DNA from: Minicystis rosea
Lineage (GTDB): Bacteria > Myxococcota_A > Polyangia > Polyangiales > Polyangiaceae
Assembly: GCA_001931535.1 (NCBI GenBank)
Contig: CP016211.1
Location: forward strand, 4,375,573 to 4,439,572
DNA: 64,000 bases
Direction of reading: 5' to 3'
Shown here: in pieces, positions 5,773 to 62,754 of the stretch
Numbering within the stretch: position 1 is the first letter of the stretch
Layout of the letters: every line of letters starts with the position of its first letter
The notes under the pieces: model-generated
What the model saw: only the letters and a program-made list of their open reading frames with translations
Database searches by the model: none
Told to the model about the DNA's origin: nothing
Position numbers and translations under genes: made by a program

Positions 5773-5998
5773 TGAACTTTCAAAATCTGTTGAACGAATT
5801 GATGGGTCGAAAGCATCAGGAAGTCAAGCGCGTCAACGCACAGCGCACCGCGCCAAAGGGCGGCCGGAATCGTCTCCGCAGCAACCACCGCACGTTCGCG
5901 TGTTCATGGGGCGTCCACGCAAACGCGTCACAACCCATCGCACCACGGCATCGCGACATCGACGCTGCTCTCCGCGACGCGATCGAAGCGCGCGCAGC

Positions 5999-6056
5999 TC
6001 AGCCGACGAGGATCAATGCGCGCGGCTCTGCCGACGAGGATCAATGCGCGCGGCTC
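5999..6056. repeat. 2 x 28-bp direct repeat (GCCGACGAGGATCAATGCGCGCGGCTC)
   Basis: Read directly in the intergenic region between the GbsR gene and the S8 protease gene. Confidence 0.5.
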
Positions 6057-6211
6057 AGCCGCTGCTCATCCACCGCTGCGCGACGCGACGAAAGCTCAAA
6101 GCCCGACTGAGAAAGCCAACGTCAGGCCCGAGCGGCGCGACGGAAAGAGGGCGCGGGTGGTTCGAGGTATGGGGGACCCGACGACTCCGCCGGCGGGGGC
6201 TTTCCTGTCAC

Positions 6212-9569: not shown

Positions 9570-10445
9570 GTGCGGCGCGTCATCGAACTCCCCGACCGTG
9601 GCAAGCTCATCGTAGCCACGGACGTCCAGGGCAACGTGGCCGACTTCGATCGCGTGGCCGCAGTCTTCGAAGAAGCCGTGAGGACCGAAGGTGAAGCCAC
9701 CCTCGTCGTCACCGGCGACCTCGTGCACGGCCCCGAGCTGACCGAAGACGAGTGGCCCGACTATCTCGGCACCTTCTATCACGGCGACTCGAAGACGGTG
9801 CTCGAGCATGCTCGAACGCTCTCCGATCGCTACCCAGGACGCGTGCACTACTTGCTCGGGAACCACGAGCACGCGCACGTGGGTGGGCCGGTGGTGTCGA
9901 AGTTCTTCCCCGACGAAGCGCGTCGCCTCGAGGATCTCCTCGGCGACGATGGCACGCGCCGCATGCGCGCGTGGCTGCGCACGTGGCCGTTCGTCGCCGT
10001 CGCCCGGAACGCTCGCCTGGTGATGATGCACGCCGCGCCGCACGCGCGGATCCGCAGCGCGGAGGACCTCGATCGCCTGCCGCTCGAAGGCTTCTACGAC
10101 GTGCCCCTCGAAGACATGGCGGCCCGCGGGACGCTCGGCGCGCTGCTCTGGGCGCGCACCACGTCCACCGATCGCGGCTACGAGTTCCTGCGCGCGATCG
10201 ATCCCGAGGCCCGCGTCGCCGTGTACGGCCACGACGTGGCGCGCGGCGGCTTCGCCGTCGATCGCGAGCCGCTCCTCTGCGTGAGCACGAGCTTCGGTTG
10301 CTTCGACGGCGACAAGCTCTACCTGGAGTGGGATCTGTCGCAGCCGGCCGAGAGCGCGCGCGAAGTCGCCCGCCGCGGCCTGCGCGTCCTCCACCCCGGC
10401 ACGCCGCCCGTCCACCGCGACGTGCACTTCAGCAGCTATCTCTGA
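9570..10445 (+). CDS. metallophosphoesterase (calcineurin-like phosphoesterase)
   Basis: Motifs GDLVHGP and GNHEHAHVGG; GTG start at 9570. Confidence 0.7.
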   Translation: MRRVIELPDRGKLIVATDVQGNVADFDRVAAVFEEAVRTEGEATLVVTGDLVHGPELTEDEWPDYLGTFYHGDSKTVLEHARTLSDRYPGRVHYLLGNHEHAHVGGPVVSKFFPDEARRLEDLLGDDGTRRMRAWLRTWPFVAVARNARLVMMHAAPHARIRSAEDLDRLPLEGFYDVPLEDMAARGTLGALLWARTTSTDRGYEFLRAIDPEARVAVYGHDVARGGFAVDREPLLCVSTSFGCFDGDKLYLEWDLSQPAESAREVARRGLRVLHPGTPPVHRDVHFSSYL

Positions 10446-32175: not shown

Positions 32176-32838
32176 AACGCTTCGGTCTGCGGGATGGTCC
32201 AGGGCTCGGCGATGGCCGCGGCCTCCCAGGCACGAAATGCCGGGTCGGCGAAGATGGCGTCGGCATAGGCCTGCGATGCGGGGCGCATCGGAACACCATA
32301 GGTGCGGAGACGCGTGGCGACGGGCGCATAGAAGGCATCGGCGATGGTGCGCGCGCCGAACAAGAAGGGACCACCCGCGCCGTAGCGCTCGCGCGTGTCA
32401 GCCCACAGCGCCTCGATGCGCGCGAGATCGGCCTGCGTGTCGTCGGGCCAGGCGCGCGGCGTGGTGCGGCGGCGGATGTTCATCGAGAGGTCACGGCGAA
32501 CCGCGCCGAAGCTCGAATGCATTTCGCAAGTCACGGCGCGGCAAATGGCACGCGTGCGCGGATCCTCGGGCCAGAGGTGAGCCGAAGGCGCGGCCTCCGC
32601 AGCCCATTCGGCGATGGCGAGCGAGTCCCAGATGGTGATGCCGTCGACCTCGAGCGCAGGGACGCGCCCGCTCGGCGAGACGGCGACCACTTCGGGGATC
32701 TGCGCTTTCCCATAACCGGGGCCGCCGAGCGGAATCACCCGCTCTTCGAAGGGAATGCCCGCCCAGGTGAGCACGAGCCACGGGCGCAGCGACCACGATG
32801 AATAGTTCTTGTTACCGATGTAGAGAACGGCGCTCATG
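32172..32838 (-). CDS. glutathione S-transferase
   Basis: ATG at 32838 (MSAVLYIGNKNYSSWSLRPW); thioredoxin-like N-domain with SxWS motif plus a helical C-domain. The upstream part of ORF ..33152 is a Arg-rich artefact. Confidence 0.75.
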
Positions 32839-33063
32839 CGCGCGAGGATAGTGCCTCGAACCGCGGGGCGCTCCCTCGATCGTGGCGCGGTGGATTCCGC
32901 CTGCGAGGTGGTCGCGATGCGCGACGGCGTACCGCGGCGGGCGCGTGGAGCCTCGCGTTCGTCGGATCCTCGCGCGGCGGGGCTTCTGGCCGTGCGTGTC
33001 CCGTGCCACCATGCGCCGGCTCGAACCCTTTCCCTTCCGCTTCCTGCGATCCGGATTCGAATC

Positions 33064-36000
33064 ATGACGAAGCTGACCGCCGCACTCCATGCCCTTTTCC
33101 TCGTCGCCGCGACGAGCTTCCTCGCCGCGTGCGGGCGCTCCGAAGTCGACATCTCCGTCGGTGGCTCATCGGCGACGAGCTGTCAGACGAACGCCGACTG
33201 CGCATCGACACCGGCCACGCCGCTGTGCCTGATACCACCCGGGCAGTGCGTCGCATGCTTGACCTCGCCGGACACGTGCCCGGCCGGCGAGACCTGCGAC
33301 GCCCAAACGCACACCTGCGTGCCGACCACGACGGGCTGTCAGAGCGACGCGGACTGCTCCGCGCCGACGCCGCACTGCCGGCTCGACACACACGTCTGCG
33401 TCGAGTGCACGAGCAACGAGCAGTGCCCCGGCGACGAGCAGTGCGCGAGCTTCCAATGCGTCGGCTTCTGCGGTGACGGATCGGCCTGCACCAACGGCAA
33501 GACCTGCTGCTCGCCGCTCTGCGTGGACGCGTCGAGCGATCCCGAGAACTGCGGCGGCTGCGGCATCAAGTGCGGGCCGTTCCCGCAGGCGTCGGGCTCG
33601 TGCTCGGGCGCGACGTGCACCGTCGGCCAATGCTTCCCCGGCTTCGCCAACTGCAACGGCCTCCTCAGCGACGGATGCGAGGTCGACACGGCCACCGATG
33701 CCACGAACTGCGGTGGATGCGGCATCACCTGCAAGCCCGATGAAACGTGCTCGGGCGGGACCTGCGCCGGGTCCTGCGGCGCCGTGGGCTCGTGCACGCC
33801 CACTCAAACGTGCTGCGGGACGCAGTGCGCGAACACGCAGAGCGATCCGCTGAACTGCGGGACCTGCGGCAACACTTGCACCGCGGTTCCGCAGGGCAAC
33901 ACCGCGTGCGTCTCGAGCGCGTGCCAGATCATCAACTGCGCGGCGGGCTTCGCCGACTGCAACGGCAAGATCATCGACGGCTGCGAAGCCGCCACCGACA
34001 AGGATCCCAACAACTGCGGCACCTGCGGGACGGTGTGCGCCGCGGGCTCCGTCTGCGTCGCGGGCACGTGCCAGTCCACGACCTGCAAGACCACGGGCTG
34101 CCCCGTGGGGCTCGCGTGCTGCGGTGTCGCCTGCACCGATACCAACAACGATCTCGGCAACTGCGGCGGCTGCGGCAACGCCTGCCCGCCGAACGCCACG
34201 GCGTGCATGGGCGGCGGCTGCTGCTTCCCGCAGCCCGGCGGCGGCGTCATCTGCTCCAGCGTGGTGTGCACGCCGCCGCTGCAGAACTGCGGCGGGACCT
34301 GCGTCGATCAGGGCACGGATCCCAGCAACTGCGGCGGCTGCGGCATCAAGTGCGGGCCCACCGAAACGTGCGTGAACGGCACGTGCACGGGCACGATCAC
34401 GTGCAACGGCGGCCCGGCGTGCGCGCCCACGCAGGCGTGCTGCGCGAGCGGGTGCGCGAGCACGGACACCGATCCGAAGAACTGCGGCAAGTGCGGCATC
34501 GTCTGCCCGGCCGGCAACAACTGCGTCGGCGGCTCCTGCCAGGCGACGTGCAACGGCGGGCCCACGTGCTCACCGACGCAGCAGTGCTGCTCGACCGGAT
34601 GCGCCAACACGGGCTCGGATCCGAACAACTGCGGCGGCTGCGGCATCGTTTGCCCGGCGGACACCACCTGCGTCAACGGCGCCTGCCAAGGCACGTGCAA
34701 CGGCGGACCGATGTGCGGCGCCGGACAGACCTGCTGCCCGAGCGGGTGCGCCAACACGACCAGCGACGTGAAGAATTGCGGCGGCTGCGGCATCGTCTGC
34801 GGCGACGAGCAGACCTGCAACAACGGCATGTGCACGACGCCCATGCAATGCAACGGCGGCCCGGCGTGCGGCGCCGGGCAGACCTGCTGCCCGACGGGCT
34901 GCGCGGATCTCAACAACGATCCCAACCACTGCGGCGGCTGCGCCACCGTGTGCGGGCCGACCGCGTCGTGCATCAATGGCTCGTGCGCGACCAACGAGGG
35001 CGCCTTCAATCCGATCGTGAATCCGACGTTCCTCGCGCCGGGCGTCCACAACTTCACGACGATCAACATCCCGGCGGGCGTCACCGTCTTCGTGGCCGGG
35101 CCGGGGCCGGCGTCGGGCACGCTCGATCTGCGCGCCACGGGCGCGATCGTCATCGACGGGACCATCGATCTCTCGGGCGGGCCCGGCACCCAAAACACCA
35201 TCACCTCGATGAGCACGCAGTCCGGCCGCGCCGGGAGCGGCGGTTACACGGGTGAGCCCTATCAATCGGCCACGCCTTCTTCAGCGTGCCAGTTCATCGC
35301 CGGCAACCCGGGTCAGCTCGGGTTCCAACTCCAGGGCACGCCGGGCACCTGCACCATCCTGTCGACGAGCATCTGCGTCTCGCAAATGGATCCGGCTGCG
35401 CTGGTGTTCACGGCGCCTCCGGCGATGTTCGGCGGCGGCGCAGGCGTGTTCACGGGCTTCCGTGGTTATGGCAGCGGCGGCGGCGGCCCGGCCGGCGGCG
35501 CGCCCGGCGCAATCGGGCCTGCCTTCGGCGGGCAACAGAACTGCTCGGGCGCTTCCGGCGGCGGCGGCGCCGTCGCGGGCAAGGGCGGCAATGCCGGCAA
35601 TGCCACCTACAATGGCAAGGACGGTGTGCTCGGACAGACGCAGTGCCAAGGCGTGATGGGCTTCCCGCCGGCCTACGTCGGCGGCGGCGGCGGCGGCAGC
35701 ATCGGTACACAAGCCGCCCTGGACCGCGCGGTGCTCACCACCTTCCAGACCGGCTCCGGCGGCGGCGGCGGCAGCGCCGATTACCTCAATCGTCCGGTGT
35801 TCGGCGGCACCTCGGGCGGCGGCGGCGGCGGCGGCGCGCTCAAGCTGTCCACGCCCGCGAGCATCACCATCAAGGGTCAGCTTCTCGCCAACGGCGGTGT
35901 GGGCGGCGATGCCTTCATCGGCAATGGCGCCGCGGCCGGCTGCGATCCGCAGCCCGGCGCGGCGGGTGGCGGTGGATCGGGCGGTGTGATCTACCTGTCG

Positions 36001-36237
36001 GCGCCGAGCGTCTCGGTGAGCAATGGTGCCGTCATCTCGGCGGCCGGGGGCGCTGGTGGCTTCGGCAGCTTGTTCGCGAGCGGCGGCGGCGGTGGCGCCG
36101 GTGGCCTCGGTCGGATCCGACTCTCGGTGTCGCCGGCGACGTGCTCGCTGAGCGGGACGTTCAAGCCGCCGCTCCAGGCTGGATGCGGGACGGCGAATGC
36201 GGCTGGGTTTGCATACGTGGGGACGTATCCGAATTGA
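33064..36237 (+). CDS. giant extracellular Cys-rich repeat lipoprotein (more than 20 DPxNCGxCGxxC repeats) with a Gly-rich C-terminal region
   Basis: ATG at 33064 and lipobox LAAC. Repeats such as SDPENCGGCGIKCG, TDPSNCGGCGIKCG and SDPNNCGGCGIVCP. The last ~350 aa are Gly-rich (GGGGGG runs). Confidence 0.75.
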   Translation: MTKLTAALHALFLVAATSFLAACGRSEVDISVGGSSATSCQTNADCASTPATPLCLIPPGQCVACLTSPDTCPAGETCDAQTHTCVPTTTGCQSDADCSAPTPHCRLDTHVCVECTSNEQCPGDEQCASFQCVGFCGDGSACTNGKTCCSPLCVDASSDPENCGGCGIKCGPFPQASGSCSGATCTVGQCFPGFANCNGLLSDGCEVDTATDATNCGGCGITCKPDETCSGGTCAGSCGAVGSCTPTQTCCGTQCANTQSDPLNCGTCGNTCTAVPQGNTACVSSACQIINCAAGFADCNGKIIDGCEAATDKDPNNCGTCGTVCAAGSVCVAGTCQSTTCKTTGCPVGLACCGVACTDTNNDLGNCGGCGNACPPNATACMGGGCCFPQPGGGVICSSVVCTPPLQNCGGTCVDQGTDPSNCGGCGIKCGPTETCVNGTCTGTITCNGGPACAPTQACCASGCASTDTDPKNCGKCGIVCPAGNNCVGGSCQATCNGGPTCSPTQQCCSTGCANTGSDPNNCGGCGIVCPADTTCVNGACQGTCNGGPMCGAGQTCCPSGCANTTSDVKNCGGCGIVCGDEQTCNNGMCTTPMQCNGGPACGAGQTCCPTGCADLNNDPNHCGGCATVCGPTASCINGSCATNEGAFNPIVNPTFLAPGVHNFTTINIPAGVTVFVAGPGPASGTLDLRATGAIVIDGTIDLSGGPGTQNTITSMSTQSGRAGSGGYTGEPYQSATPSSACQFIAGNPGQLGFQLQGTPGTCTILSTSICVSQMDPAALVFTAPPAMFGGGAGVFTGFRGYGSGGGGPAGGAPGAIGPAFGGQQNCSGASGGGGAVAGKGGNAGNATYNGKDGVLGQTQCQGVMGFPPAYVGGGGGGSIGTQAALDRAVLTTFQTGSGGGGGSADYLNRPVFGGTSGGGGGGGALKLSTPASITIKGQLLANGGVGGDAFIGNGAAAGCDPQPGAAGGGGSGGVIYLSAPSVSVSNGAVISAAGGAGGFGSLFASGGGGGAGGLGRIRLSVSPATCSLSGTFKPPLQAGCGTANAAGFAYVGTYPN

Positions 36238-36245
36238 GGGTGGGG

Positions 36246-36279
36246 TCAACCTGGGTGGGGTGAGCCCCACCCAGGTTGA
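36246..36279 (+). terminator. perfect 15-bp stem / 4-nt loop hairpin immediately after the stop codon of the giant Cys-rich gene
   Basis: tcaacctgggtgggg-tgag-ccccacccaggttga; GC-rich with no T-tract, so also compatible with a REP-like hairpin. Confidence 0.4.
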
Positions 36280-36440
36280 GGTTGAGCCCCGCGCAGATTG
36301 AAAAGGCAGCTGAGCCCCACCCGGGTTGAGCTGAGCCTCACCCAGGTTGACCCCACAGCCTGCTTCTTTCTCAGCCCACCCAGGTTGAGCTTTCCTCACC
36401 CAGGTTGAGCCCACCCCTGTACAGCTCGTTCAGGGGTGAG
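36267..36440. repeat. array of 5 direct repeats (C/T)CACCC(A/G)GGTTGA(G/C)C plus a second hairpin (cacccctg...caggggtg)
   Basis: Copies at about 36267, 36318, 36338, 36376 and 36396; the core AGGTTGAGC is shared with the 37277-37410 array. Confidence 0.6.
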
Positions 36441-36489
36441 GCAGCTTCAGCTCGACCTGATGGCGCGGTTGCGCCGCCTGCGCCAGCGC

Positions 36490-37203
36490 TCACACCATCG
36501 CTCTCCGCCCTGGTTGGATATCCAGCGACAGCTCGCCTCGCCGGAGAGCCTCCCAGGTTGCCTCCGGTGTGGCCGGTTGCCGAGCACACCACTCGAGATA
36601 CGCGAAGAACGTGATGTCAGGATCCCGCGCCTCCTCATCCGAGACATCAAAGCGCCCTTCGATGGCACGCTCCACCGCTGCCAACAGATTCTCGTGATAG
36701 CGCTCGTACACCGTCAGGTCCCGAAGCCACCGGAAGCGGGCAGTGTCGTGAGCGACCACCTCTGCCGCAGCGTCGCGCACCCGCTCCAGCCAACCCGGGT
36801 AGCACCGGAGCATCTGAAGATCGTAAGCAAACTGATTGCCATCGTGATGCGCGGCCAGGAGATGCTTGAGCACCCGCTCCGGAGAGCTCGCGAGCCCAGA
36901 CGCGTCCAGCGGAGCGATGGCTTGCTCCCAAACGAGAAACGGAAACCGCATCGGTCGATGACGTAGAAGCCGTGCCCGCAACGTCGGACGAACCGGGTGC
37001 TCCACACAGGTCCCGATCGTCTCGGATCGGAAGAGGATGCGCTGCCACATCCGCACGACGCCGAGAAAGATCTGCCAGAGATTGGGACACGGCTCCACCA
37101 GCGCCGCGGCCCGCACCCGCTCGAGGCCGCGATGGACCCGCTCAGGCTCGACCAGGATCAACCTCGCGAACCAGGGTAACGCGCGAACCTCGTCGGTCGT
37201 CAT
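36490..37203 (-). CDS. hypothetical protein flanked by AGGTTGAGC repeat arrays
   Basis: 237 aa; ATG at 37203; no recognisable domain. Confidence 0.45.
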   Translation of the reverse strand: MTTDEVRALPWFARLILVEPERVHRGLERVRAAALVEPCPNLWQIFLGVVRMWQRILFRSETIGTCVEHPVRPTLRARLLRHRPMRFPFLVWEQAIAPLDASGLASSPERVLKHLLAAHHDGNQFAYDLQMLRCYPGWLERVRDAAAEVVAHDTARFRWLRDLTVYERYHENLLAAVERAIEGRFDVSDEEARDPDITFFAYLEWCARQPATPEATWEALRRGELSLDIQPGRRAMV

Positions 37204-37276
37204 ATGCCACTTTTACCGGCCGGGGCCCGCGTTGGACAGGAGTGTTTTAACCGACGCCCTCAAAGCCCTCAGCCCC

Positions 37277-37410
37277 GACCGAGGTTGAGCCCAGCTAGAA
37301 ACCTCGATCGAGGTTGAGCCCAGCTCCCAGCTCACCGGAGCTCCCAACTCATCGGCGAGCCAGAAGCAGCGTGGCCCATCCTGACGCCTCGACCGAGGTT
37401 GAGCTGAGCT
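37277..37410. repeat. 3 direct repeats GA(C/T)CGAGGTTGAGC(C/T)(C/G)AGCT
   Basis: Copies at 37277-96, 37306-25 and 37391-410, between the hypothetical gene and the RAYT-like gene. Confidence 0.6.
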
Positions 37411-37710
37411 GAGCTGGAGCTGCGCCCAACATCCGATGCAAGGCATGCCCGCCGCACAGGGCCGCCGCTCGCTTCGCGACAAACCTTCGCCGTGCATCAT
37501 CCCATATGTCGTGAGGTGGCCGGTCTGACAGAGCGCCTCCTCCATCGACGATGCCATTCATCTCGACCCAGGTGACGCGGCCGCAGCCATCCACCGAAGA
37601 CCATCAGCGCATATCGCTCAAGAGCATCAGAGCACGCAACACCCCCGCAATTGACTTCACCAAACAATCCCTATCGCAACATCCCCCATCGCGACTGGCT
37701 CAAACATCGA

Positions 37711-38664
37711 TCAGCCTACGATACAAGTCGGCAGCAACCCACCAGCAGAACAGCTCGACGGTTCAGCCACGTCGGCGCCGTGAAACACCCGCATCCACCA
37801 TGTTCCGCTCGGGAATGCGACACTACGGAGGCCTGCGCGCCATCGCTCGATTGCAGCTCGATACGACATGCGAAACGAGCGAACGGCTTCCACGGCTCGG
37901 TGCCATGCACCCCCTTGCTCACGCCCAACGGCGAACGTGGGGTTGCGATCTCGCGCGGGCTCGAAGCTCGAAATGCGATCTTGTGGCGAGATCTTCCTCA
38001 CTCGCTCCGGCCCCAGAAAACGAAGCCCCTTTCGTCGCATCTCTGCATGCGCCTCCTGCTCGAGTCGCTCGACCTCGGCGGCAACTTCAGCCCGAAATGG
38101 ATCGGCCCCGCTTCGCTCGATCGAGGGAGGCAGCAGGATGGGCAGGGACACCTCCGCCGGCCATTGAGGATTGCTTGGATCGAAGTAGGTTTGAGGCCGG
38201 CTCGCGCGCAGCACCCCAGTCCCCACCTCGCTCGAGCCGACCATCGCGCCGGGCCACTCGCGCGCATGTCTGACGAGGCCTGCAGCTACGGGGTTTGCGA
38301 GAACATAAGCGATCTTCTCCACAATCGCAGCCCGTGTCAGCAGCCTGACGACGCTCGTGGCCTCATGGTCCCATACCGGCCCTTCCCATCGGCGGAGCAG
38401 CTTTGTACCGAGCGCCACCAAGCGATGAAAGAACTGCAAGAAACGTGGAAGAAGCCCATGCACGTCGGTCACCACGAGATGCAGGTGCGTCGACATCGCG
38501 CAAAATGCGTGCACCTGGAGACCCAATCGATGCGCCGACACCGCAAGCGCATAGGTCAAGAGCTGATTGATGCGCGCGTCGGGTCGGAAGAGGAGATGTC
38601 GACGCAACGTACGTCGGGTAATGAGGTAAGTCGCTCCGAGAACGACCTCGCGAGGTTGGCTCAT
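37711..38664 (-). mobile_element. IS200/IS605-family HuH Y1 transposase, long REP-associated (RAYT)-like form
   Basis: HuH motif MSTHLHLVV and catalytic-Tyr motif IAYVLANPVAAGLV (Y-x3-NPV-AGLV). 318 aa from ATG 38664; TTG 38694 is possible. Repeats flank it on both sides, and the sequence is locally AT-richer. Confidence 0.65.
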
Positions 38665-38779
38665 GCCCGAATGTATCTTCAAATATCGAGCCAAAGACTG
38701 AATCGAGCAATATCAACAGCTTGGGCAACCACGTAGGGCCTCGAAGCCCGCCAGCCCGCCAATTTCCGCCAGCCATTCA

Positions 38780-38841
38780 CGCCAACGTGGGTCGGTCCAG
38801 CCACCCAATCCGCCAACGTGGGTTGGCCCAACCCATTGACA
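38780..38841. repeat. 2 x ~31-bp tandem repeat CGCCAACGTGGGTYGG..CC, the second copy palindromic (gggttgg-c-ccaaccc)
   Basis: Read directly upstream of the RAYT-like gene. Confidence 0.5.
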
Positions 38842-53238: not shown

Positions 53239-53473
53239 CGCAAAGCCCTCTCGGCCTCCATCCGGGACATCCCCTCTCCCTCTTCGCAAAGCCATCTCGG
53301 TCTCCATCCCGGACATCGCCTCTCCTCGTTCGCAAAAGCCACCTCGCCCTCCATCCGGGACATCCCCTCTCCCTCTTCGCAAAGCCATCTCGGTCTCCAT
53401 CCGGGACATCTCATCTCCTCGCGCCCAAGCCATCTCGCCATCCACTCCGGACAGCGCCCATCGCGCAAAAGCT
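53239..53473. repeat. ~46-bp tandem repeat, about 5 copies (CGCAAAGCCATCTCGGTCTCCATCCGGGACATCCCCTCTCCCTCTT)
   Basis: Read directly, immediately after the response-regulator stop and ~120 bp upstream of the flavoprotein-membrane fusion gene. Confidence 0.85.
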
Positions 53474-53589: not shown

Positions 53590-56500
53590 ATGGTCGACCT
53601 CGGTGAACGACAGACCCTGGTGGTCATCGGCAATGGCATGACCAGCCACGCGCTCTGCCGCAGGCTCGCGGAGTGCGGGGTCACACGCGGTGAGCTCGAG
53701 GTCGTGGTCTTCGGCGAAGAGCCGCGGCCCGCGTACGATCGCGTGCACCTCACGGATCTCCTCGGCGGCAAGACCGAGGCCGATCTCTCGCTTGCCCCGC
53801 GCTCCTGGTACGAAGATCGCGCCATCACGCTCCACCTCGGCGATCCCGTGGTGGAGATCGATCGCGACGAGTGCCTCGTGCGCTCCGCGTCCGGCGCCAC
53901 CGTGCTCTTCGATCGGCTCGTCTTCGCTACGGGATCACGGCCGTTCATCCCGCCCATCCCGGGCGTCGATCTGCCGGGCGTCTTCGTCTATCGCACCGTC
54001 ACCGATCTCCACGCCATCCTCGCGCATGCGTCGTCCGCCAAGCGCGCCGCGGTGATCGGCGGCGGCCTGCTCGGGTTGGAGGCCGCGCGCGCGGTGCACG
54101 CCCTGGGGCTCGAGGTGCACATCATCGAGGCCCATCCAGGGCTGATGTCGCGCCAACTCGACGCCACGGGCGCGCGCCTCCTCGGCGAGCGCGTCGAGAC
54201 GCTCGGCGTGCGCGTGAAGACGGGCGCGCGCACCGCGCGCATCGACGCCGGCAAGTCCGCGAGCGCCGCCTCCAAGCGGATCCTCCGTTTCGAAGACGGC
54301 TCCACACTCGAGGTCGATCTCGTGATCTTCGCCGCCGGCGTTCGCCCTCGCACCGAGCTCGGCGTCGCCTGCGGGCTCCTCACGGCGCCGAGCGGCGGGC
54401 TCCTCGTCGACGATCGCCTCACCACCTCCGATCCACGCATCTTCGCGGTCGGCGAGTGCGCCACGCATCGAGGCATCACCTATGGCCTGGCCGCGCCCGG
54501 CTATCAGATGGTCGACGTGCTCGTGAACAACATCGGCGGCGGGGACGCCACGTTCACGGGCGCGAGCCAGTCGACCCGCTTGAAGCTGCTCGGCGTGCAC
54601 GTCGCCTCGCTCGGTCGGCCCGATGAAAAGAGCACGCCGGGCGCGACCACGCATACGTACCTCGCCGGGGGCGCCTATCGAAAGCTGGTGATCGCCGATG
54701 GCCACATCATCGGTGCCATCGCGATCGGTGAATGGGAAGATCTGGTGCGCATCGAGGACGCGCTCGCCGAGCCGCGCCGCGTCTCGTTCTGGGATCTGCG
54801 CCGCTTTCGCAGCACGGGCAGCCTCTTTCTCAAATCGGAGTCGCCGCCCGTGCACGAGTGGCCGGCGGAAGCGCTCGTGTGCGGCTGCCTCGGCGTGCGG
54901 CGCGGCGCGCTCAGCGATGCGGAGATCAAAGGCTGCTCCACCGTCGAAGCCATGTCGGCCCACACCGGCGCTGGCACCATGTGCGGCTCCTGCAAACCGC
55001 TCCTCGCGGATTACCTCCGTCGCGAGCGCGCCGATTCTCTCCCTGCCTCTCAGCTCCTGCGGCTCGCCCCGCCGCGCGTGCCGACCTTCGACGGCGTCGC
55101 TCCTTCGAGCAAGGCGCGCCCCGCCTCGGCCGCGCCCCTGCCTTCCAAGCCCACCCCCGCGCCCATCCCTGCGGCGCCCACGCCGCCGAGCACAGCCGGC
55201 GTCGCCGCGCCCAAAGGACGCAAGAGCTCGAATGCACCCTCGCGCAAAGCGCGTCACAACTCGGGAGCTCCGTCGCGCCAGGCAAAGGCCCTATCGAACA
55301 TTCCGCCGCGCCGAACGACGGCCCCTTCGCAAGCTCCGCTTCCTGCACCCAAGGACAAGACCCTTTCCGTTGCTCCCCTGCCCAAAGCGAAGACCAGCTC
55401 GGCGCCTCCGAGCACGGCGCGGTCCGAGCCGACCGCCGCGCCTCGCAATGCACCTTCGCACGCGGCCTCTCCGGCGAGCGTGGCAAAGCCCCCTGCGGTC
55501 GCGGCCCCGCGCGATGCAGAGCCCCTTTCGGTTGCACCTCCGAGCACCGCACGCTCCGAGCCCGCCGCGTCGTCCAACAAGGCTCGTCCCGTTGCCCCAC
55601 CGGCGCCGCGAATCGAGACCGCGGTTGCCCGACGCGAGGCCAAGCCTGACTCCGTAACTCCGCCCAGCACCGCTCGTCCGGGAGCGCCCCTTTGCTCGGC
55701 GCGCCGCGATTCCGCCGCTCCACCGAGCACCGCGCGTCCCGGCTCGGCTGCGCCGCGGTGCGCTTCATCCAACGAGCTTGTCGAGCAACGATGCTCGCTG
55801 CGCGCCGATTCGATTGTTCCTCCGTGCGCCGCCCATGTCGACGAAGTGAATCAACCCCGATCCACCCCCGCGGCGAGTGACGATCGCGGGGAGGACTCGC
55901 CGCCGACGCTGCGCTGCAATGACGAGGGGAATGGAGCCGTGATCGAGCCGGCCGCGCCTGAAGCGCCGACGTCCGATGATGAGGATCCTCTCTCGATTCC
56001 GGCGCTCGCACCGCCGCAGGCCGCGGAGCCCGCAAAGCCGCCCGCGCCTTCCCCGCCTCCACCACCGGACTCGACGCCCGGCGAAGGCCCTCTCTCCGTG
56101 CGCTCGCCGCGTGCCGGACGCGTGCGCCCGCGGCGTCGTCAGGCTTTCGATACGCTGCAGAGCACACCGCCCATCGGCGCGGTCACCGCGCGCGAGGCAG
56201 CGTCGATCCGCCTCGATGCGCCGTCCAAACGCACCCTCACCGCCGCGCTTCCATCCATCGCGGCCCATTTGAGCGCCGCCCGCGCCGAGCGTGCACCGAT
56301 CTCGGTCGCACCCGCGTCCACCATCTCGACACGACAAGAGTCCTCGACGCGGCTGCGACCTTCGATTGCAGAGCAGGGGCCCGTCTCGGAGGCGCAGCGC
56401 GCCAAAGCACCTTCGATCGTTCCACCGCCCAAACCACCTTCGCTCGTTCCACCACCCAAACCACCTTCGATCGTCCCACCGCCCAAACCACCTTCGATCA

Positions 56501-57210
56501 TTCCCCCGCCGCTCAGCGTCCGTGGTCCCGACTCGAATGCACGCGGCGTCGACAGCGCGCCTCCGTCGACGCGACGCGGATCGATGCCACCGCTCCGCCC
56601 CCTCTCCGTGCCTCCGGGGCGGCTCCCTTCGATTCCACCACCGCGCCTCTCGCTCGCGCCCATGGCGCCCGCCCAGCGCGCCGAGGAGCGCCGCCGGCAG
56701 GCGTTGCTCGGATCGGCGGCGAGCGCGTTCGCGGGCGTGTTGATGCTCCTCCTCGCGCCGTCCCTCGGCCCCGCGCGCTCGTTCCTCGGCTTTCATCTGG
56801 ACGCGCTCATCGTCGATCGCATCGTCCGCCAAGCGAGCGGTTATGCCGTGCTCGTCCTCTCGCTCTTGGGGCTCTTCCTTTCGATTCGCAAGCGCGTTCC
56901 GCGCCTCGCTTCCCGCGACATCCCCGGCGCGCGCGCGTTCCATGGAGTCGTCGGCGCGGCGGCGATCGCGTTCCTCTTCCTCCACACCGGCCTGCACCTC
57001 GGCGTGCGCTTGAATCGACTGCTCATGCTCGACTTCCTCGCGCTCTCCGCGCTCGGCGCGGTTGCGGGCCTCTTCGCCGCCGTCATCGGCAACGGTGATC
57101 CGGCCGCTGCGCAGGCGCGGAGGCTCTTCGTCTTCCGCGTGCACGTCATCCTCTTTCTCCCCTTCCCCATCCTGGTCGCCCTGCACGTGCTCGGCGCCTA
57201 CTACTTTTGA
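53590..57210 (+). CDS. NirB-like FAD/NAD(P)H oxidoreductase + BFD-like [2Fe-2S] domain, ~560-aa Pro/Ala-rich disordered linker, C-terminal ferric-reductase-like bis-heme-b transmembrane domain
   Basis: N-terminus VVIGNGMTSHA, AAVIGGGLLGLEAA and AVGECA (class-II pyridine-nucleotide disulfide oxidoreductase fold). BFD box CGCLGVRRGALSDAEIKGCSTVEAMSAHTGAGTMCGSCKPLL. Linker repeats KPPSIVPPP x4 and PPSTARSEP. C-terminal TM helices carry FHGVVGAAAIAFLFLH (H-x13-H) and VHVILFLPFPILVALH (H-x13-H). Confidence 0.75.
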   Translation: MVDLGERQTLVVIGNGMTSHALCRRLAECGVTRGELEVVVFGEEPRPAYDRVHLTDLLGGKTEADLSLAPRSWYEDRAITLHLGDPVVEIDRDECLVRSASGATVLFDRLVFATGSRPFIPPIPGVDLPGVFVYRTVTDLHAILAHASSAKRAAVIGGGLLGLEAARAVHALGLEVHIIEAHPGLMSRQLDATGARLLGERVETLGVRVKTGARTARIDAGKSASAASKRILRFEDGSTLEVDLVIFAAGVRPRTELGVACGLLTAPSGGLLVDDRLTTSDPRIFAVGECATHRGITYGLAAPGYQMVDVLVNNIGGGDATFTGASQSTRLKLLGVHVASLGRPDEKSTPGATTHTYLAGGAYRKLVIADGHIIGAIAIGEWEDLVRIEDALAEPRRVSFWDLRRFRSTGSLFLKSESPPVHEWPAEALVCGCLGVRRGALSDAEIKGCSTVEAMSAHTGAGTMCGSCKPLLADYLRRERADSLPASQLLRLAPPRVPTFDGVAPSSKARPASAAPLPSKPTPAPIPAAPTPPSTAGVAAPKGRKSSNAPSRKARHNSGAPSRQAKALSNIPPRRTTAPSQAPLPAPKDKTLSVAPLPKAKTSSAPPSTARSEPTAAPRNAPSHAASPASVAKPPAVAAPRDAEPLSVAPPSTARSEPAASSNKARPVAPPAPRIETAVARREAKPDSVTPPSTARPGAPLCSARRDSAAPPSTARPGSAAPRCASSNELVEQRCSLRADSIVPPCAAHVDEVNQPRSTPAASDDRGEDSPPTLRCNDEGNGAVIEPAAPEAPTSDDEDPLSIPALAPPQAAEPAKPPAPSPPPPPDSTPGEGPLSVRSPRAGRVRPRRRQAFDTLQSTPPIGAVTAREAASIRLDAPSKRTLTAALPSIAAHLSAARAERAPISVAPASTISTRQESSTRLRPSIAEQGPVSEAQRAKAPSIVPPPKPPSLVPPPKPPSIVPPPKPPSIIPPPLSVRGPDSNARGVDSAPPSTRRGSMPPLRPLSVPPGRLPSIPPPRLSLAPMAPAQRAEERRRQALLGSAASAFAGVLMLLLAPSLGPARSFLGFHLDALIVDRIVRQASGYAVLVLSLLGLFLSIRKRVPRLASRDIPGARAFHGVVGAAAIAFLFLHTGLHLGVRLNRLLMLDFLALSALGAVAGLFAAVIGNGDPAAAQARRLFVFRVHVILFLPFPILVALHVLGAYYF

Positions 57211-61794: not shown

Positions 61795-62754
61795 ATGCGC
61801 TTCTGGCATGTATCGCTGTTCGTGACCGCGCTCACCGCGCCCGTCCTGGTCACCCCGAGCACCGACGCCGCCGAGTGCTCGCAACCGCCGCGCGGCGGCA
61901 GCTCCTCCGGCGGCACCGTCACGCCACCGGCGACCACCGGATCTTCCGGCAGCAATACCTCTTCTGGTGATCCGGCCACGTCCGGCGCCGGCGGCGCGAG
62001 CACGGGCACCTCCGGCAGCTCCAACGCAGGTGGCGCGCCGAGCGGCGGTGAGCCGAGCGAGGGTGGCGCCGCAAACGCAGGTGGAGCGGCAAACGAGGGT
62101 GGTGCTGCGAACGCAGGTGGTGCACCGAGCGGTGGTGAGCCCAACGAGGGTGGTGCCGCAAATGCAGGTGGCGCGCCCAACGAGGGTGGAGCTGCGAACG
62201 CAGGTGGCGCGCCCAATGGTGGTGAGCCCAACGAGGGTGGTGCACCCGGCGATCCCAACGCCGGTGTCGGCGGTGGCACGAGCAGTGGAGATCCTCCGAT
62301 CCCCCGCGATCGCACGACCTGCGATGCGGCCAAGGCCTGTTACGAGCGCTGCACGCCGGAGTGCACGTGGTACTGCGCCGACATCCACGATTGTGCGCCC
62401 ACCTGCATCGATCGCTGCGAGCACGAGTGTGACAAGGTCTGCCCCATTTCCAACTGCGAGAAGTACTGCACCACCACGTGCAACCTCGATTGCCGGATCC
62501 AGTGCCTCGAGGCCGACGATCGCGAGGGGTGCATCGCGTCATGCTCGTCCACCTGCCCCGCCCAGTGCGACGCCAAGTGCGGGCCGACCGAGCTTGGCCC
62601 GGCCGAGATCAAGAGCGCGCGCAAGGCCGCGAGCTGCGCGCTGTCCGAGCCGATTGGCTCGCTCGGCAATGGGTCCGTGCTCGGCCTCGGTGTCCTCGCC
62701 GGTCTCGCCGCCTGCCGGCGCCGGGCGAAGCGGGGTTCTCCCGGACGCGCGTGA
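61795..62754 (+). CDS. secreted repeat protein: (GGAANAGGAPNEGG)n repeats, Cys-rich module, MYXO-CTERM-like tail
   Basis: ATG at 61795 after GGAAGGGGGA; signal peptide; about 9 Gly/Ala/Asn repeats; 26 Cys; C-terminal GSVLGLGVLAGLAACRRRAKR. Confidence 0.6.
   Translation: MRFWHVSLFVTALTAPVLVTPSTDAAECSQPPRGGSSSGGTVTPPATTGSSGSNTSSGDPATSGAGGASTGTSGSSNAGGAPSGGEPSEGGAANAGGAANEGGAANAGGAPSGGEPNEGGAANAGGAPNEGGAANAGGAPNGGEPNEGGAPGDPNAGVGGGTSSGDPPIPRDRTTCDAAKACYERCTPECTWYCADIHDCAPTCIDRCEHECDKVCPISNCEKYCTTTCNLDCRIQCLEADDREGCIASCSSTCPAQCDAKCGPTELGPAEIKSARKAASCALSEPIGSLGNGSVLGLGVLAGLAACRRRAKRGSPGRA

Follow-up and report, generated by a model that had tools for sequence, protein, structure and literature searches.

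Repetitive extragenic palindrome (REP) sequences and the REP-associated tyrosine transposases (RAYTs) provide the best-known example of a domesticated transposase that co-evolves with a genome-wide family of short repeats, and all the characterised cases that we know of depend on hairpin-forming palindromes. Here we analyse a 64,000-nucleotide stretch of the Minicystis rosea chromosome (contig CP016211.1; hereafter the window), in which arrays of short repeats lie on either side of a gene for a 237-residue hypothetical protein, next to a gene for a RAYT-like transposase of the HUH-Y1 type, i.e., with a histidine-hydrophobic-histidine motif and a single catalytic tyrosine. The same genomic logic as in REP/RAYT is found here with a non-palindromic core in tandem arrays and with an enzyme bearing an extra conserved domain, and the hosts are bacteria with the largest known genomes. 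Our preferred reading, to which we assign a probability of roughly 0.65, is that the repeats are the M. rosea members of a Polyangia-wide short-repeat family that is cognate to a distinct HUH-Y1 protein with two domains and about 300 residues. That the repeat and Y1 families as such are cognate partners in the manner of a REPtron, with repeats that are dispersed and mostly extragenic in Polyangia, is highly probable. The repeat family is apparently undescribed and the system apparently REP/RAYT-like with non-palindromic repeats; the open-access full-text literature yielded nothing relevant on the motif, nor on RAYT, REP or IS200 in connection with Sorangium or myxobacteria, and Sorangium or Myxococcales are not mentioned in three papers on related transposases (Quentin 2018, PMC6006769; Bertels 2017, PMC5581495; Di Nocera 2013, PMC3733652).

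The REPtrons described in Escherichia coli and, as REPINs, in Pseudomonas (Nunvar 2010; Bertels and Rainey 2011, PMC3116915; Ton-Hoang 2012; Messing 2012, PMC3479197; Quentin 2018) share with the present system a HUH-Y1 catalytic core of the single-domain type with the signature Y---NP, and TnpA-REP (4ER8) is the closest fold of the present protein. Further shared properties are a gene flanked by its own repeats in opposite orientation, extragenic dispersal as seen in related genomes, co-variation of repeat and enzyme, and a chromosomal rather than plasmid-borne location. REPs are imperfect palindromes of 20-40 nt, whereas the present units are non-palindromic and form no hairpin of their own (folding z = -1.4 for an array in L170 and +0.8 for one in L177); only the inverted pair at 36246-36279 of the window forms a strong hairpin. 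The units lack a 5' GT[AG]G at a hairpin foot and, in agreement with the original prediction that the consensus is not headed by GTAG, a logo of 145 arrays holds neither GTAG nor GTGG. They are arranged head to tail with array-specific spacers, and not as the inverted doublets of REPINs or the alternating units of bacterial interspersed mosaic elements (BIMEs). REP/BIME-type elements in the strict sense, as first proposed for this locus, are thus not what is found, and neither are the convergent pairs of REP doublets, with up to 24 units on one strand and one inverted pair in the window; the wider idea of a lineage-specific REP-RAYT system does hold with respect to the cognate bracket, the clade co-variation and the extragenic dispersal in relatives. 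Compared with RAYTs, which are typically single-copy genes and are not carried by plasmids (Bertels 2017), the present protein is about twice as long, has a conserved C-terminal domain and is found as several diverged paralogues per genome.

A RAYT-related Y1 gene between inverted non-REP repeats, and in some genomes dispersed families in the form of dimers or clusters, is also described for TIRtrons/TIRYTs (Di Nocera 2013), which correspond largely to subclass 2.1 of Quentin (2018). The TIRYT repeats are, however, single terminal inverted repeats with GGGGWSAS, whereas the present arms are tandem arrays with another core, in which GGGGWSAS is not a conserved element, and the motifs NH[VYF]H and YIELNP and the helix-turn-helix-like tail of subclass 2.1 differ from the [ST][TN]H[LHY]H and Y[VA]L[AT]NPV of the present protein. 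Subclass 2.3 of the same study (Chromatiales, Alteromonadales) is similar in its length (median 325 residues), a subclass-specific C-terminal domain and several copies with about 75% identity between them, but its motifs are NHYH and YVDLNP, its core domain has two insertions, and it is a subclass for which associated repeats were not found, whereas the present core is uninterrupted, with about 58 residues from HUH to Tyr, and repeats are present. On account of its Y---NP signature the protein falls in class 2 TnpA-Y1, and its motifs and domain layout match no subclass in Quentin (2018). None of the features of the IS200/IS605 enzymes is found either: TnpA of IS608 and ISDra2 has Y---Q, about 150 residues, near-identical copies, subterminal hairpins and often a tnpB, compared with Y---NP, about 300 residues, paralogues of 70-75% identity and no TnpB neighbour at the present Y1 gene.

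Repeat arrays around genes for HUH-Y1 proteins

The repeats in the window are real, beyond chance. The exact sequence AGGTTGAGC occurs eight times against 0.23 expected, and none of 100 shuffles reaches eight; six of these copies lie at 36279-36410 and 37282-37404, and the remaining two (44964 and 53152), located within long open reading frames and without the extended context, look like chance matches. Scanning the window for CACCCAGGTTGAGC with at most two mismatches gives nine matches against 0.36 expected, eight of them in the locus, and the degenerate CCSRGGTTGA gives eight against 0.31, every one in the locus and none in the other 61 kb. Enrichment and folding bear out the five repeats and two hairpins that had been noted at 36246-36440, where a partial duplication of AGGTTGAGC (36279) and a minus-strand copy absent from that list (36244-36257) are found in addition. 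The three repeats noted at 37277-37410 are likewise present, and match GACCGAGGTTGAGCCCAGCT with zero, one and two mismatches (37277, 37306 and 37391, respectively).

In M. rosea, the order in the sense of the Y1 gene is forward copies, CTGGCGG boxes, a sigma-54-like promoter, the gene and inverted copies. The link between such arrays and Y1 genes first came from homologues picked by protein identity, i.e., one in a Minicystis metagenome-assembled genome (MAG; L002) and two paralogues in Sorangium So ce406 (L003, L004), all with tandem units containing GACCCAGGTTG upstream in the gene sense and inverted copies downstream; the upstream units of L004 number eight, with a period of 19 nt. For 17 Y1 loci (31-100% identity), the region up to 1.5 kb upstream holds 49 forward and 7 inverted copies, 6 of the 7 from one locus, and the downstream region 3 forward and 32 inverted copies. 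Five further protein-selected genes, one of them sampled twice, each have the bracket, in one case with 14 inverted copies downstream (L257), and it is present in eight out of eight independent protein-selected genome loci. Homologues with the bracket, at 31-75% identity to the M. rosea Y1, come from Sorangium, Minicystis and Polyangia MAGs.

The same arrangement is seen in a metagenome set of 79 homologues (36-75% identity) that were picked by a peptide pattern, blind to arrays. Upstream, 88 copies are forward and 9 inverted, with 44 loci mostly forward and 5 mostly inverted; downstream, 5 are forward and 76 inverted, with 35 loci mostly inverted and 2 mostly forward; and only four copies fall inside the 79 Y1 genes. 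About one third of these loci have no match to the strict core, and all eight that were inspected carry variant cores (GACCCACGTTGG, GACTCAGGTTGA or GACCCAGAGTA), mostly in the same arrangement. A generalised half-core gives forward-to-inverted ratios of 32:0 upstream and 3:24 downstream.

The repeat unit consists of a conserved core of about 14-16 nt, in which clade variants follow a constant GACCCA half, and an array-specific spacer. The extended core tracks the protein clade, ending in ...GGTTG[G/A]G[G/C] for the THLH clade and in ...GGTTGAT[T/G]T for those with NH[H/L/Y]H, and both arms of one Y1 gene have a common extended core. The ACGTTGG-type variant of the M. rosea upstream arm is also found upstream of the homologues L264, L269, L271 and L272.

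Three loci deserve separate mention. Both flanking arrays have the same orientation in Sorangium So ce388 (L206, 4152-5813), an exception to the bracket rule. A Polyangiales MAG (L155, 6769-7359) has fragmentary Y1 matches of 46 and 78 residues between core copies and looks like a decayed Y1 gene of which the repeat bracket remains. A Minicystis MAG (L252, 5190-5320) has a different tandem repeat, five copies of CCTCCGGGGTTGCC, at 270-390 nt past the Y1 stop and beyond the inverted core copy.

The M. rosea protein combines an N-terminal Y1 nuclease domain, with the HUH motif STHLHLVV (H60-L-H62) and the tyrosine motif KIAYVLANPV (catalytic Y120), and a conserved, mostly helical C-terminal domain of about 150 residues. 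An alignment of 32 members, which form two subfamilies about 39% identical, has H60, H62, Y120, N124 and P125 invariant, as well as F264, Y268 and F284-P285-x-G287-T288 in the C-terminal part. The family is large, with at least 1,293 and at least 3,416 significant clusters in two homology searches. Several Sorangium genomes hold at least four diverged paralogues, about 70-75% identical to the query, and M. rosea has one family member among the best 120 matches; no member occurs in phage records, and next to none in those of plasmids.

Sequence elements upstream of the Y1 genes are shared as well. The element in front of the M. rosea gene is one mismatch from the TGGCACG-N4-TTG that occupies the same position in homologues, and GGCA[CT]G-N4-[T/C/A]TG with GG at -27 to -29 is found in 15 of 73 homologues against 0.15 expected. 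Carriers are L002-L004, L252 and 15 of the metagenome loci L258-L337, and outside the Sorangium/Minicystis-like clade the element is found only in L290 and L292; as far as can be read from sequence, this suggests that expression of this RAYT-like family is controlled by an enhancer-binding protein. Boxes of CTGGCGG, or of the palindrome TGGCGGCCGCCA, stand in the same place in L002 (about 9890-9925), L003 (9660-9930) and L004 (9905-9925), and also in the upstream regions of L252, L271 and L272. The case for these boxes is purely comparative, the GC-rich 7-mer alone not being significant, and they could be an upstream activator site or an operator.

Dispersed arrays in related genomes

A genome collection that does not include M. 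rosea was scanned for tandem pairs of CACCCRGGTTGA, which gave 112 array-bearing blocks. Most are from complete Sorangium chromosomes and from MAGs of Polyangiaceae, Myxococcales, Sandaracinaceae and Anaeromyxobacteraceae, and a few blocks in unrelated taxa resemble chance repeats within coding sequence. With the narrow CACCCRGGTTGA tandem pattern by itself, 4-6 separate sites are seen per Sorangium genome. Large arrays are built on the exact 14-mer CACCCAGGTTGAGC; in S. cellulosum So0157-2, for example, CACCCAGGTTGAGCTGCTCCC is present in about 20 perfect copies, and arrays with this core reach 24 copies. A Y1 homologue is found in only 14 of the 112 blocks (four diverse queries, E < 1e-3), and of the 49 arrays whose flanks measure at least 1.6 kb on either side, 42 are in blocks without a Y1 gene. 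According to a frame-aware check, about 13% of the arrays are possibly coding compared with 63% of random segments of the same length, i.e., about 87% are extragenic.

With one consensus taken from each of the 145 arrays, the logo reads CC-n-[C/G]ACCC[A/G]GGTTGA[G/T], and position -4 is a C in 93% of the arrays although it lies outside the search pattern. Spacers are specific to the array, and the period varies from 15 to 60 nt without preference for multiples of three and with a mode of 21 nt that is inflated by one large array. The M. rosea array at 36244-36410 fits this logo and shares the 14-mer CACCCAGGTTGAGC with the Sorangium arrays; it is a further member of the family, located in the next intergenic space beyond the resident 237-residue gene.

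After masking of the arrays and clustering, 42 Sorangium blocks reduce to about 18-20 independent loci. Thirteen of these blocks represent one orthologous site in 13 Sorangium genomes (L142, L158, L159, L160, L167/L244, L170, L193, L208, L223, L228, L236 and L240; chromosome fraction 0.79-0.83), where the arrays have 4-24 copies and differing spacers, such as TGCTCCC with a period of 21 in So0157-2 and CCCC with a period of 18 in So ce134. The site behaves like a variable-number tandem repeat at a fixed position, and since 13 genomes share it with varying copies and spacers, the arrays must be long-lived at each site and turn over internally. Such copy-number variation at fixed Sorangium sites offers potential strain-typing markers, and the arrays are a hazard for assembly and genome engineering in these natural-product producers. 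A replichore-linked strand bias of the arrays (raw Fisher p = 6e-4) was dropped because the 42 blocks collapse to about 18-20 loci, with 13 blocks being one site; the independent loci stand at about 0:4 versus 2:1, which is not significant, and the GC skew of the blocks shows no correlation with array orientation.

Some arrays stand apart from the general pattern. Four Sorangium arrays, with periods of 27-30 or 21/42 nt, are open in a frame for which coding signal is present on either side (L146, 6748-6848; L175, 3687-3787; L179, 838-1163; L188, 1270-1406); like some REPs in earlier reports, they may have been inserted in frame into genes. The core is also shared by arrays in MAGs that carry non-myxobacterial labels, i.e., 'Acidobacteria bin100110' (L141, L150, L232, L238, L243) and 'Planctomycetota' (L187, L191, L202), and a Y1 fragment adjoins the array in L187; a wider host range, horizontal transfer or mis-binning could account for these labels. 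Viral contigs scanned for tandem pairs of the core yielded 15 local, unrelated repeats. One IMG/VR contig binned as a giant-virus MAG (label GVMAG; L009, 1322-1421), which has six tandem copies of GCAACCTGGGTCGGCGGA with the GACCCAGGTTG core and no Y1 within 14.5 kb, may be a mis-binned bacterial contig.

Proposed mechanism and rival explanations

By analogy with TnpA-REP and its REPs and with IS200/IS605, the Y1 protein would recognise the core; as the units form no hairpin, its C-terminal domain would probably assist. It would then nick and rejoin one DNA strand, by which copies would be seeded at new sites, and the arrays would subsequently expand and contract through slippage or unequal exchange; terminators or mRNA-end structures may have been recruited from the stable hairpins that lie at gene ends. 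That new copies are seeded through nicking and rejoining of DNA at the core by the enzyme is, on the strength of this analogy, a proposition for which we see the chances as evenly balanced.

The protein of the 237-residue gene is 55-82% identical to relatives across Myxococcales, occurs once in M. rosea among the matches listed and has no relative in Pfam, NCBIfam or PDB. Five genes (OmpA, Robl, V4R, Pkinase and PepM14) at 44-49.4 kb of the window, about 7 kb from this gene, have counterparts of 60-98% identity in unchanged order in a Minicystis MAG (L001), where the orthologue of the 237-residue gene, with 239 residues, heads an operon: it overlaps a gene for 196 residues, which is followed by an FGE-sulfatase gene (10001-12245 of L001). 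Both operon partners are missing from the M. rosea window. Nucleotide homology between the two genomes extends from close to the start codon of the 237-residue gene to precisely its stop codon. Synteny and homology limits together therefore identify the gene as resident and place the arrays in synteny breaks on both its sides. A comparison of orthologous loci had been suggested for the whole block at 36.2-38.9 kb; the MAG turns out to possess the 237-residue gene and to lack both the Y1 gene and the arrays at the L001 locus. A 327-residue neighbour of the MAG orthologue was checked as a candidate Y1 and is not a Y1 protein.

A more far-reaching proposal, which we regard as tentative and rather doubtful, is that the two-domain, sigma-54-driven enzyme represents a distinct HUH-Y1 class. 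Its substrate would be a core of about 15 nt without a hairpin, and it would generate and sustain head-to-tail, satellite-like arrays throughout the very large Polyangia genomes, where these arrays would mark or promote rearrangement breakpoints. In M. rosea the arrays lie in the synteny breaks on both sides of the 237-residue gene, which they may have caused or in which they may simply have gathered.

Several observations weigh against the reading of the repeats as a family cognate to the Y1 protein. No clean pair of filled and empty sites was found, and the argument for mobility is one of analogy. To our knowledge all characterised Y1 transposases recognise hairpins, so that hairpin-free recognition would be without precedent. 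The match of the protein to the NCBIfam model 'REP-associated tyrosine transposase' (NF047646 equivalog; E = 6e-13) reaches 49 bits against a curated RAYT cutoff of 80, all 32 aligned members match the model below this cutoff, and no Pfam match, including Y1_Tnp, is obtained for the protein even at E <= 10. The several diverged paralogues of Sorangium are unlike the typical single-copy RAYTs, and the persistence of arrays at orthologous sites means that much of the present distribution is inherited and not recent. Loci selected by their arrays are biased toward holding arrays, a bias for which the protein-selected sets correct. Finally, the motif is confined to this one locus within the 64-kb window.

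That last point, together with unrelated intergenic tandem repeats at 5990, 53239 and 56402, would fit local tandem duplications that stand next to the Y1 gene by coincidence; this explanation is refuted by the identical 14-mer core in arrays of other genera, which bracket homologous genes with a strict orientation rule. The suggestion in the original prediction that the 237-residue gene is cargo of a small non-canonical element between the two repeat clusters is very improbable, since the gene is conserved across Myxococcales and lies about 7 kb from the five genes that are syntenic with the Minicystis MAG. The repeat clusters on either side, the homology limits at the codons and the missing operon partners would agree with cargo, but both clusters have the same orientation, i.e., they are not inverted, and the gene is found in none of about 100 other Y1 loci examined. 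It is also decidedly unlikely that arrays, Y1 gene and inverted arrays move as a whole in the form of an autonomous, TIRtron-like insertion element, with Y1-less arrays as solo ends or decayed copies. The paralogues are only about 70-75% identical, with no near-identical copies among the matches listed, 86% of the well-flanked arrays lack a detectable Y1 remnant (E < 1e-3, four queries), Y1-less arrays with up to 24 perfect copies are a misfit for decaying ends, and there are no plasmid or phage copies; these observations have to be set against the inverted bracket at nearly every Y1 gene, the several paralogues per Sorangium genome, the fragmentary Y1 beside arrays in L155 and the convergent Y1-less arrays in L161 and L186, at which no Y1 remnant was found.

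An unlikely rival treats the arrays as iteron-like, double-stranded binding sites of a domesticated protein, similar to the iterons or Rep-binding elements of other HUH proteins; the Y1 protein or a host factor would use them in regulation, nucleoid organisation or replication-linked nicking, and they would spread and change mainly by slippage and recombination and not by transposition. A near-palindrome in the core (ACCCAGGT, or ACCCGGGT in a variant) suits a dimeric double-strand binder, and the missing unit hairpin, the conserved extra C-terminal domain, stable inheritance at orthologous sites, a modal period of 21 nt (close to two helical turns) and a chromosomal gene family with diverged copies point the same way. 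It leaves unexplained, however, the presence of the same core at many unrelated extragenic sites in diverse Myxococcota; the invariant HUH and Tyr residues argue for retained nuclease/ligase chemistry; and with periods of 15-60 nt there is no helical phasing beyond the mode, which one large array inflates.

If the Y1 protein acts on the units, as the preferred reading of a cognate repeat family would have it, the known substrate range of Y1-HUH enzymes would be widened, and the defined core variants paired with defined enzyme clades would constitute a tractable natural specificity system. The distinct-class proposal, if true, would add a new mode of substrate recognition by Y1 enzymes and possibly a contributor to the plasticity of the largest bacterial genomes.

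Features of the Minicystis rosea window

The source is the 16.04-Mb chromosome of M. rosea, and both proteins encoded at the locus match M. rosea entries, 'Transposase' and 'Hypothetical protein A7982_03769', at 100% identity. The features are compiled in Table 1. The positions given earlier for the repeats relative to the two genes stand, whereas their sense is reversed: both genes are on the minus strand, so that the array at 36.2-36.4 kb lies 3' and that at 37.3-37.4 kb lies 5' of the 237-residue gene, and what is reached 300 bp beyond the last repeat is not the beginning but the 3' end of the Y1 gene, the array at 37.3-37.4 kb being 3' of Y1.

Table 1 Features of the M. rosea locus (positions in the window)
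Feature	Position	Strand	Description
Y1-distal array	36244..36410	+	Five plus-strand copies of CC-n-CACCC[A/G]GGTTGA[G/C]C at 36268, 36318, 36339, 36377 and 36397
Hairpin 1	36246..36279		TCAACCTGGGTGGGG-tgag-CCCCACCCAGGTTGA; inverted pair of core copies, perfect 15-bp stem, 4-nt loop
Hairpin 2	36409..36442		CCCACCCCTG...CAGGGGTGAGG; -12.6 kcal/mol, z = -3.1
237-residue hypothetical protein A7982_03769	36490..37203	-	Resident chromosomal gene, outside the element
Y1-downstream arm	37277..37404	+	Three GA[C/T]CGAGGTTGAGC copies at 37277, 37306 and 37391; in inverse orientation to the Y1 gene
HUH-Y1 gene	37711..38664	-	317 residues from ATG; NCBI model 298 residues
Sigma-54-type -24/-12-like element	38680..38693	-	TGGCTCG-ATAT-TTG (TGGCTCGATATTTG); GG at -28 from ATG
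CTGGCGG boxes	38748..38772	-	Two exact and one variant; between upstream repeats and promoter-like element
Y1-upstream arm	38780..38824	-	Forward ACGTTGG-type copies GACCCACGTTGGCG (38780-38793) and AACCCACGTTGGCG (38811-38824)

The Y1-distal array occupies a convergent intergenic space, between the stop of a Cys-rich gene at 36237 and that of the 237-residue gene at 36490. Hairpin 1, which starts 9 nt past the stop of the former (1133 residues), is formed by the minus-strand copy pairing with the first plus-strand copy; it folds as DNA with -24.7 kcal/mol (z = -6.4), and none of 200 shuffles folds equally well. Hairpin 2 lies about 48 nt beyond the stop of the 237-residue gene, is not a core copy, and may be a terminator or mRNA-end structure.

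The downstream arm lies 310-430 nt past the Y1 stop and contains the 16-nt palindrome AACCTCGATCGAGGTT at 37300-37315 as well as CCGAGGTTGA, a core variant of a distant subfamily; its fold has z = -3.2 on the plus and -4.0 on the minus strand, and it is followed by (TGAGC)n at 37400-37422. The upstream arm is a 31-nt repeat in two copies, about 115-160 nt before the Y1 ATG. A search of Rfam with the locus gave no credible match (best mir-1662, E = 0.36), and scans for sigma-70 promoters and terminators gave background level only.

The Cys-rich neighbour (32836-36237, plus strand) encodes a MXAN_6577-like protein of 1133 residues with STIG1-like repeats (Pfam) and internal 147-nt repeats at 34398-34953. 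Unrelated tandem repeats elsewhere in the window lie at 5990-6061 (28 nt x 2.6), 53239-53450 (46 nt x 4.6), 56402-56510 (27 nt x 4) and 62023-62247 (18/87-nt repeat), and the M. rosea genome is generally rich in short tandem repeats.

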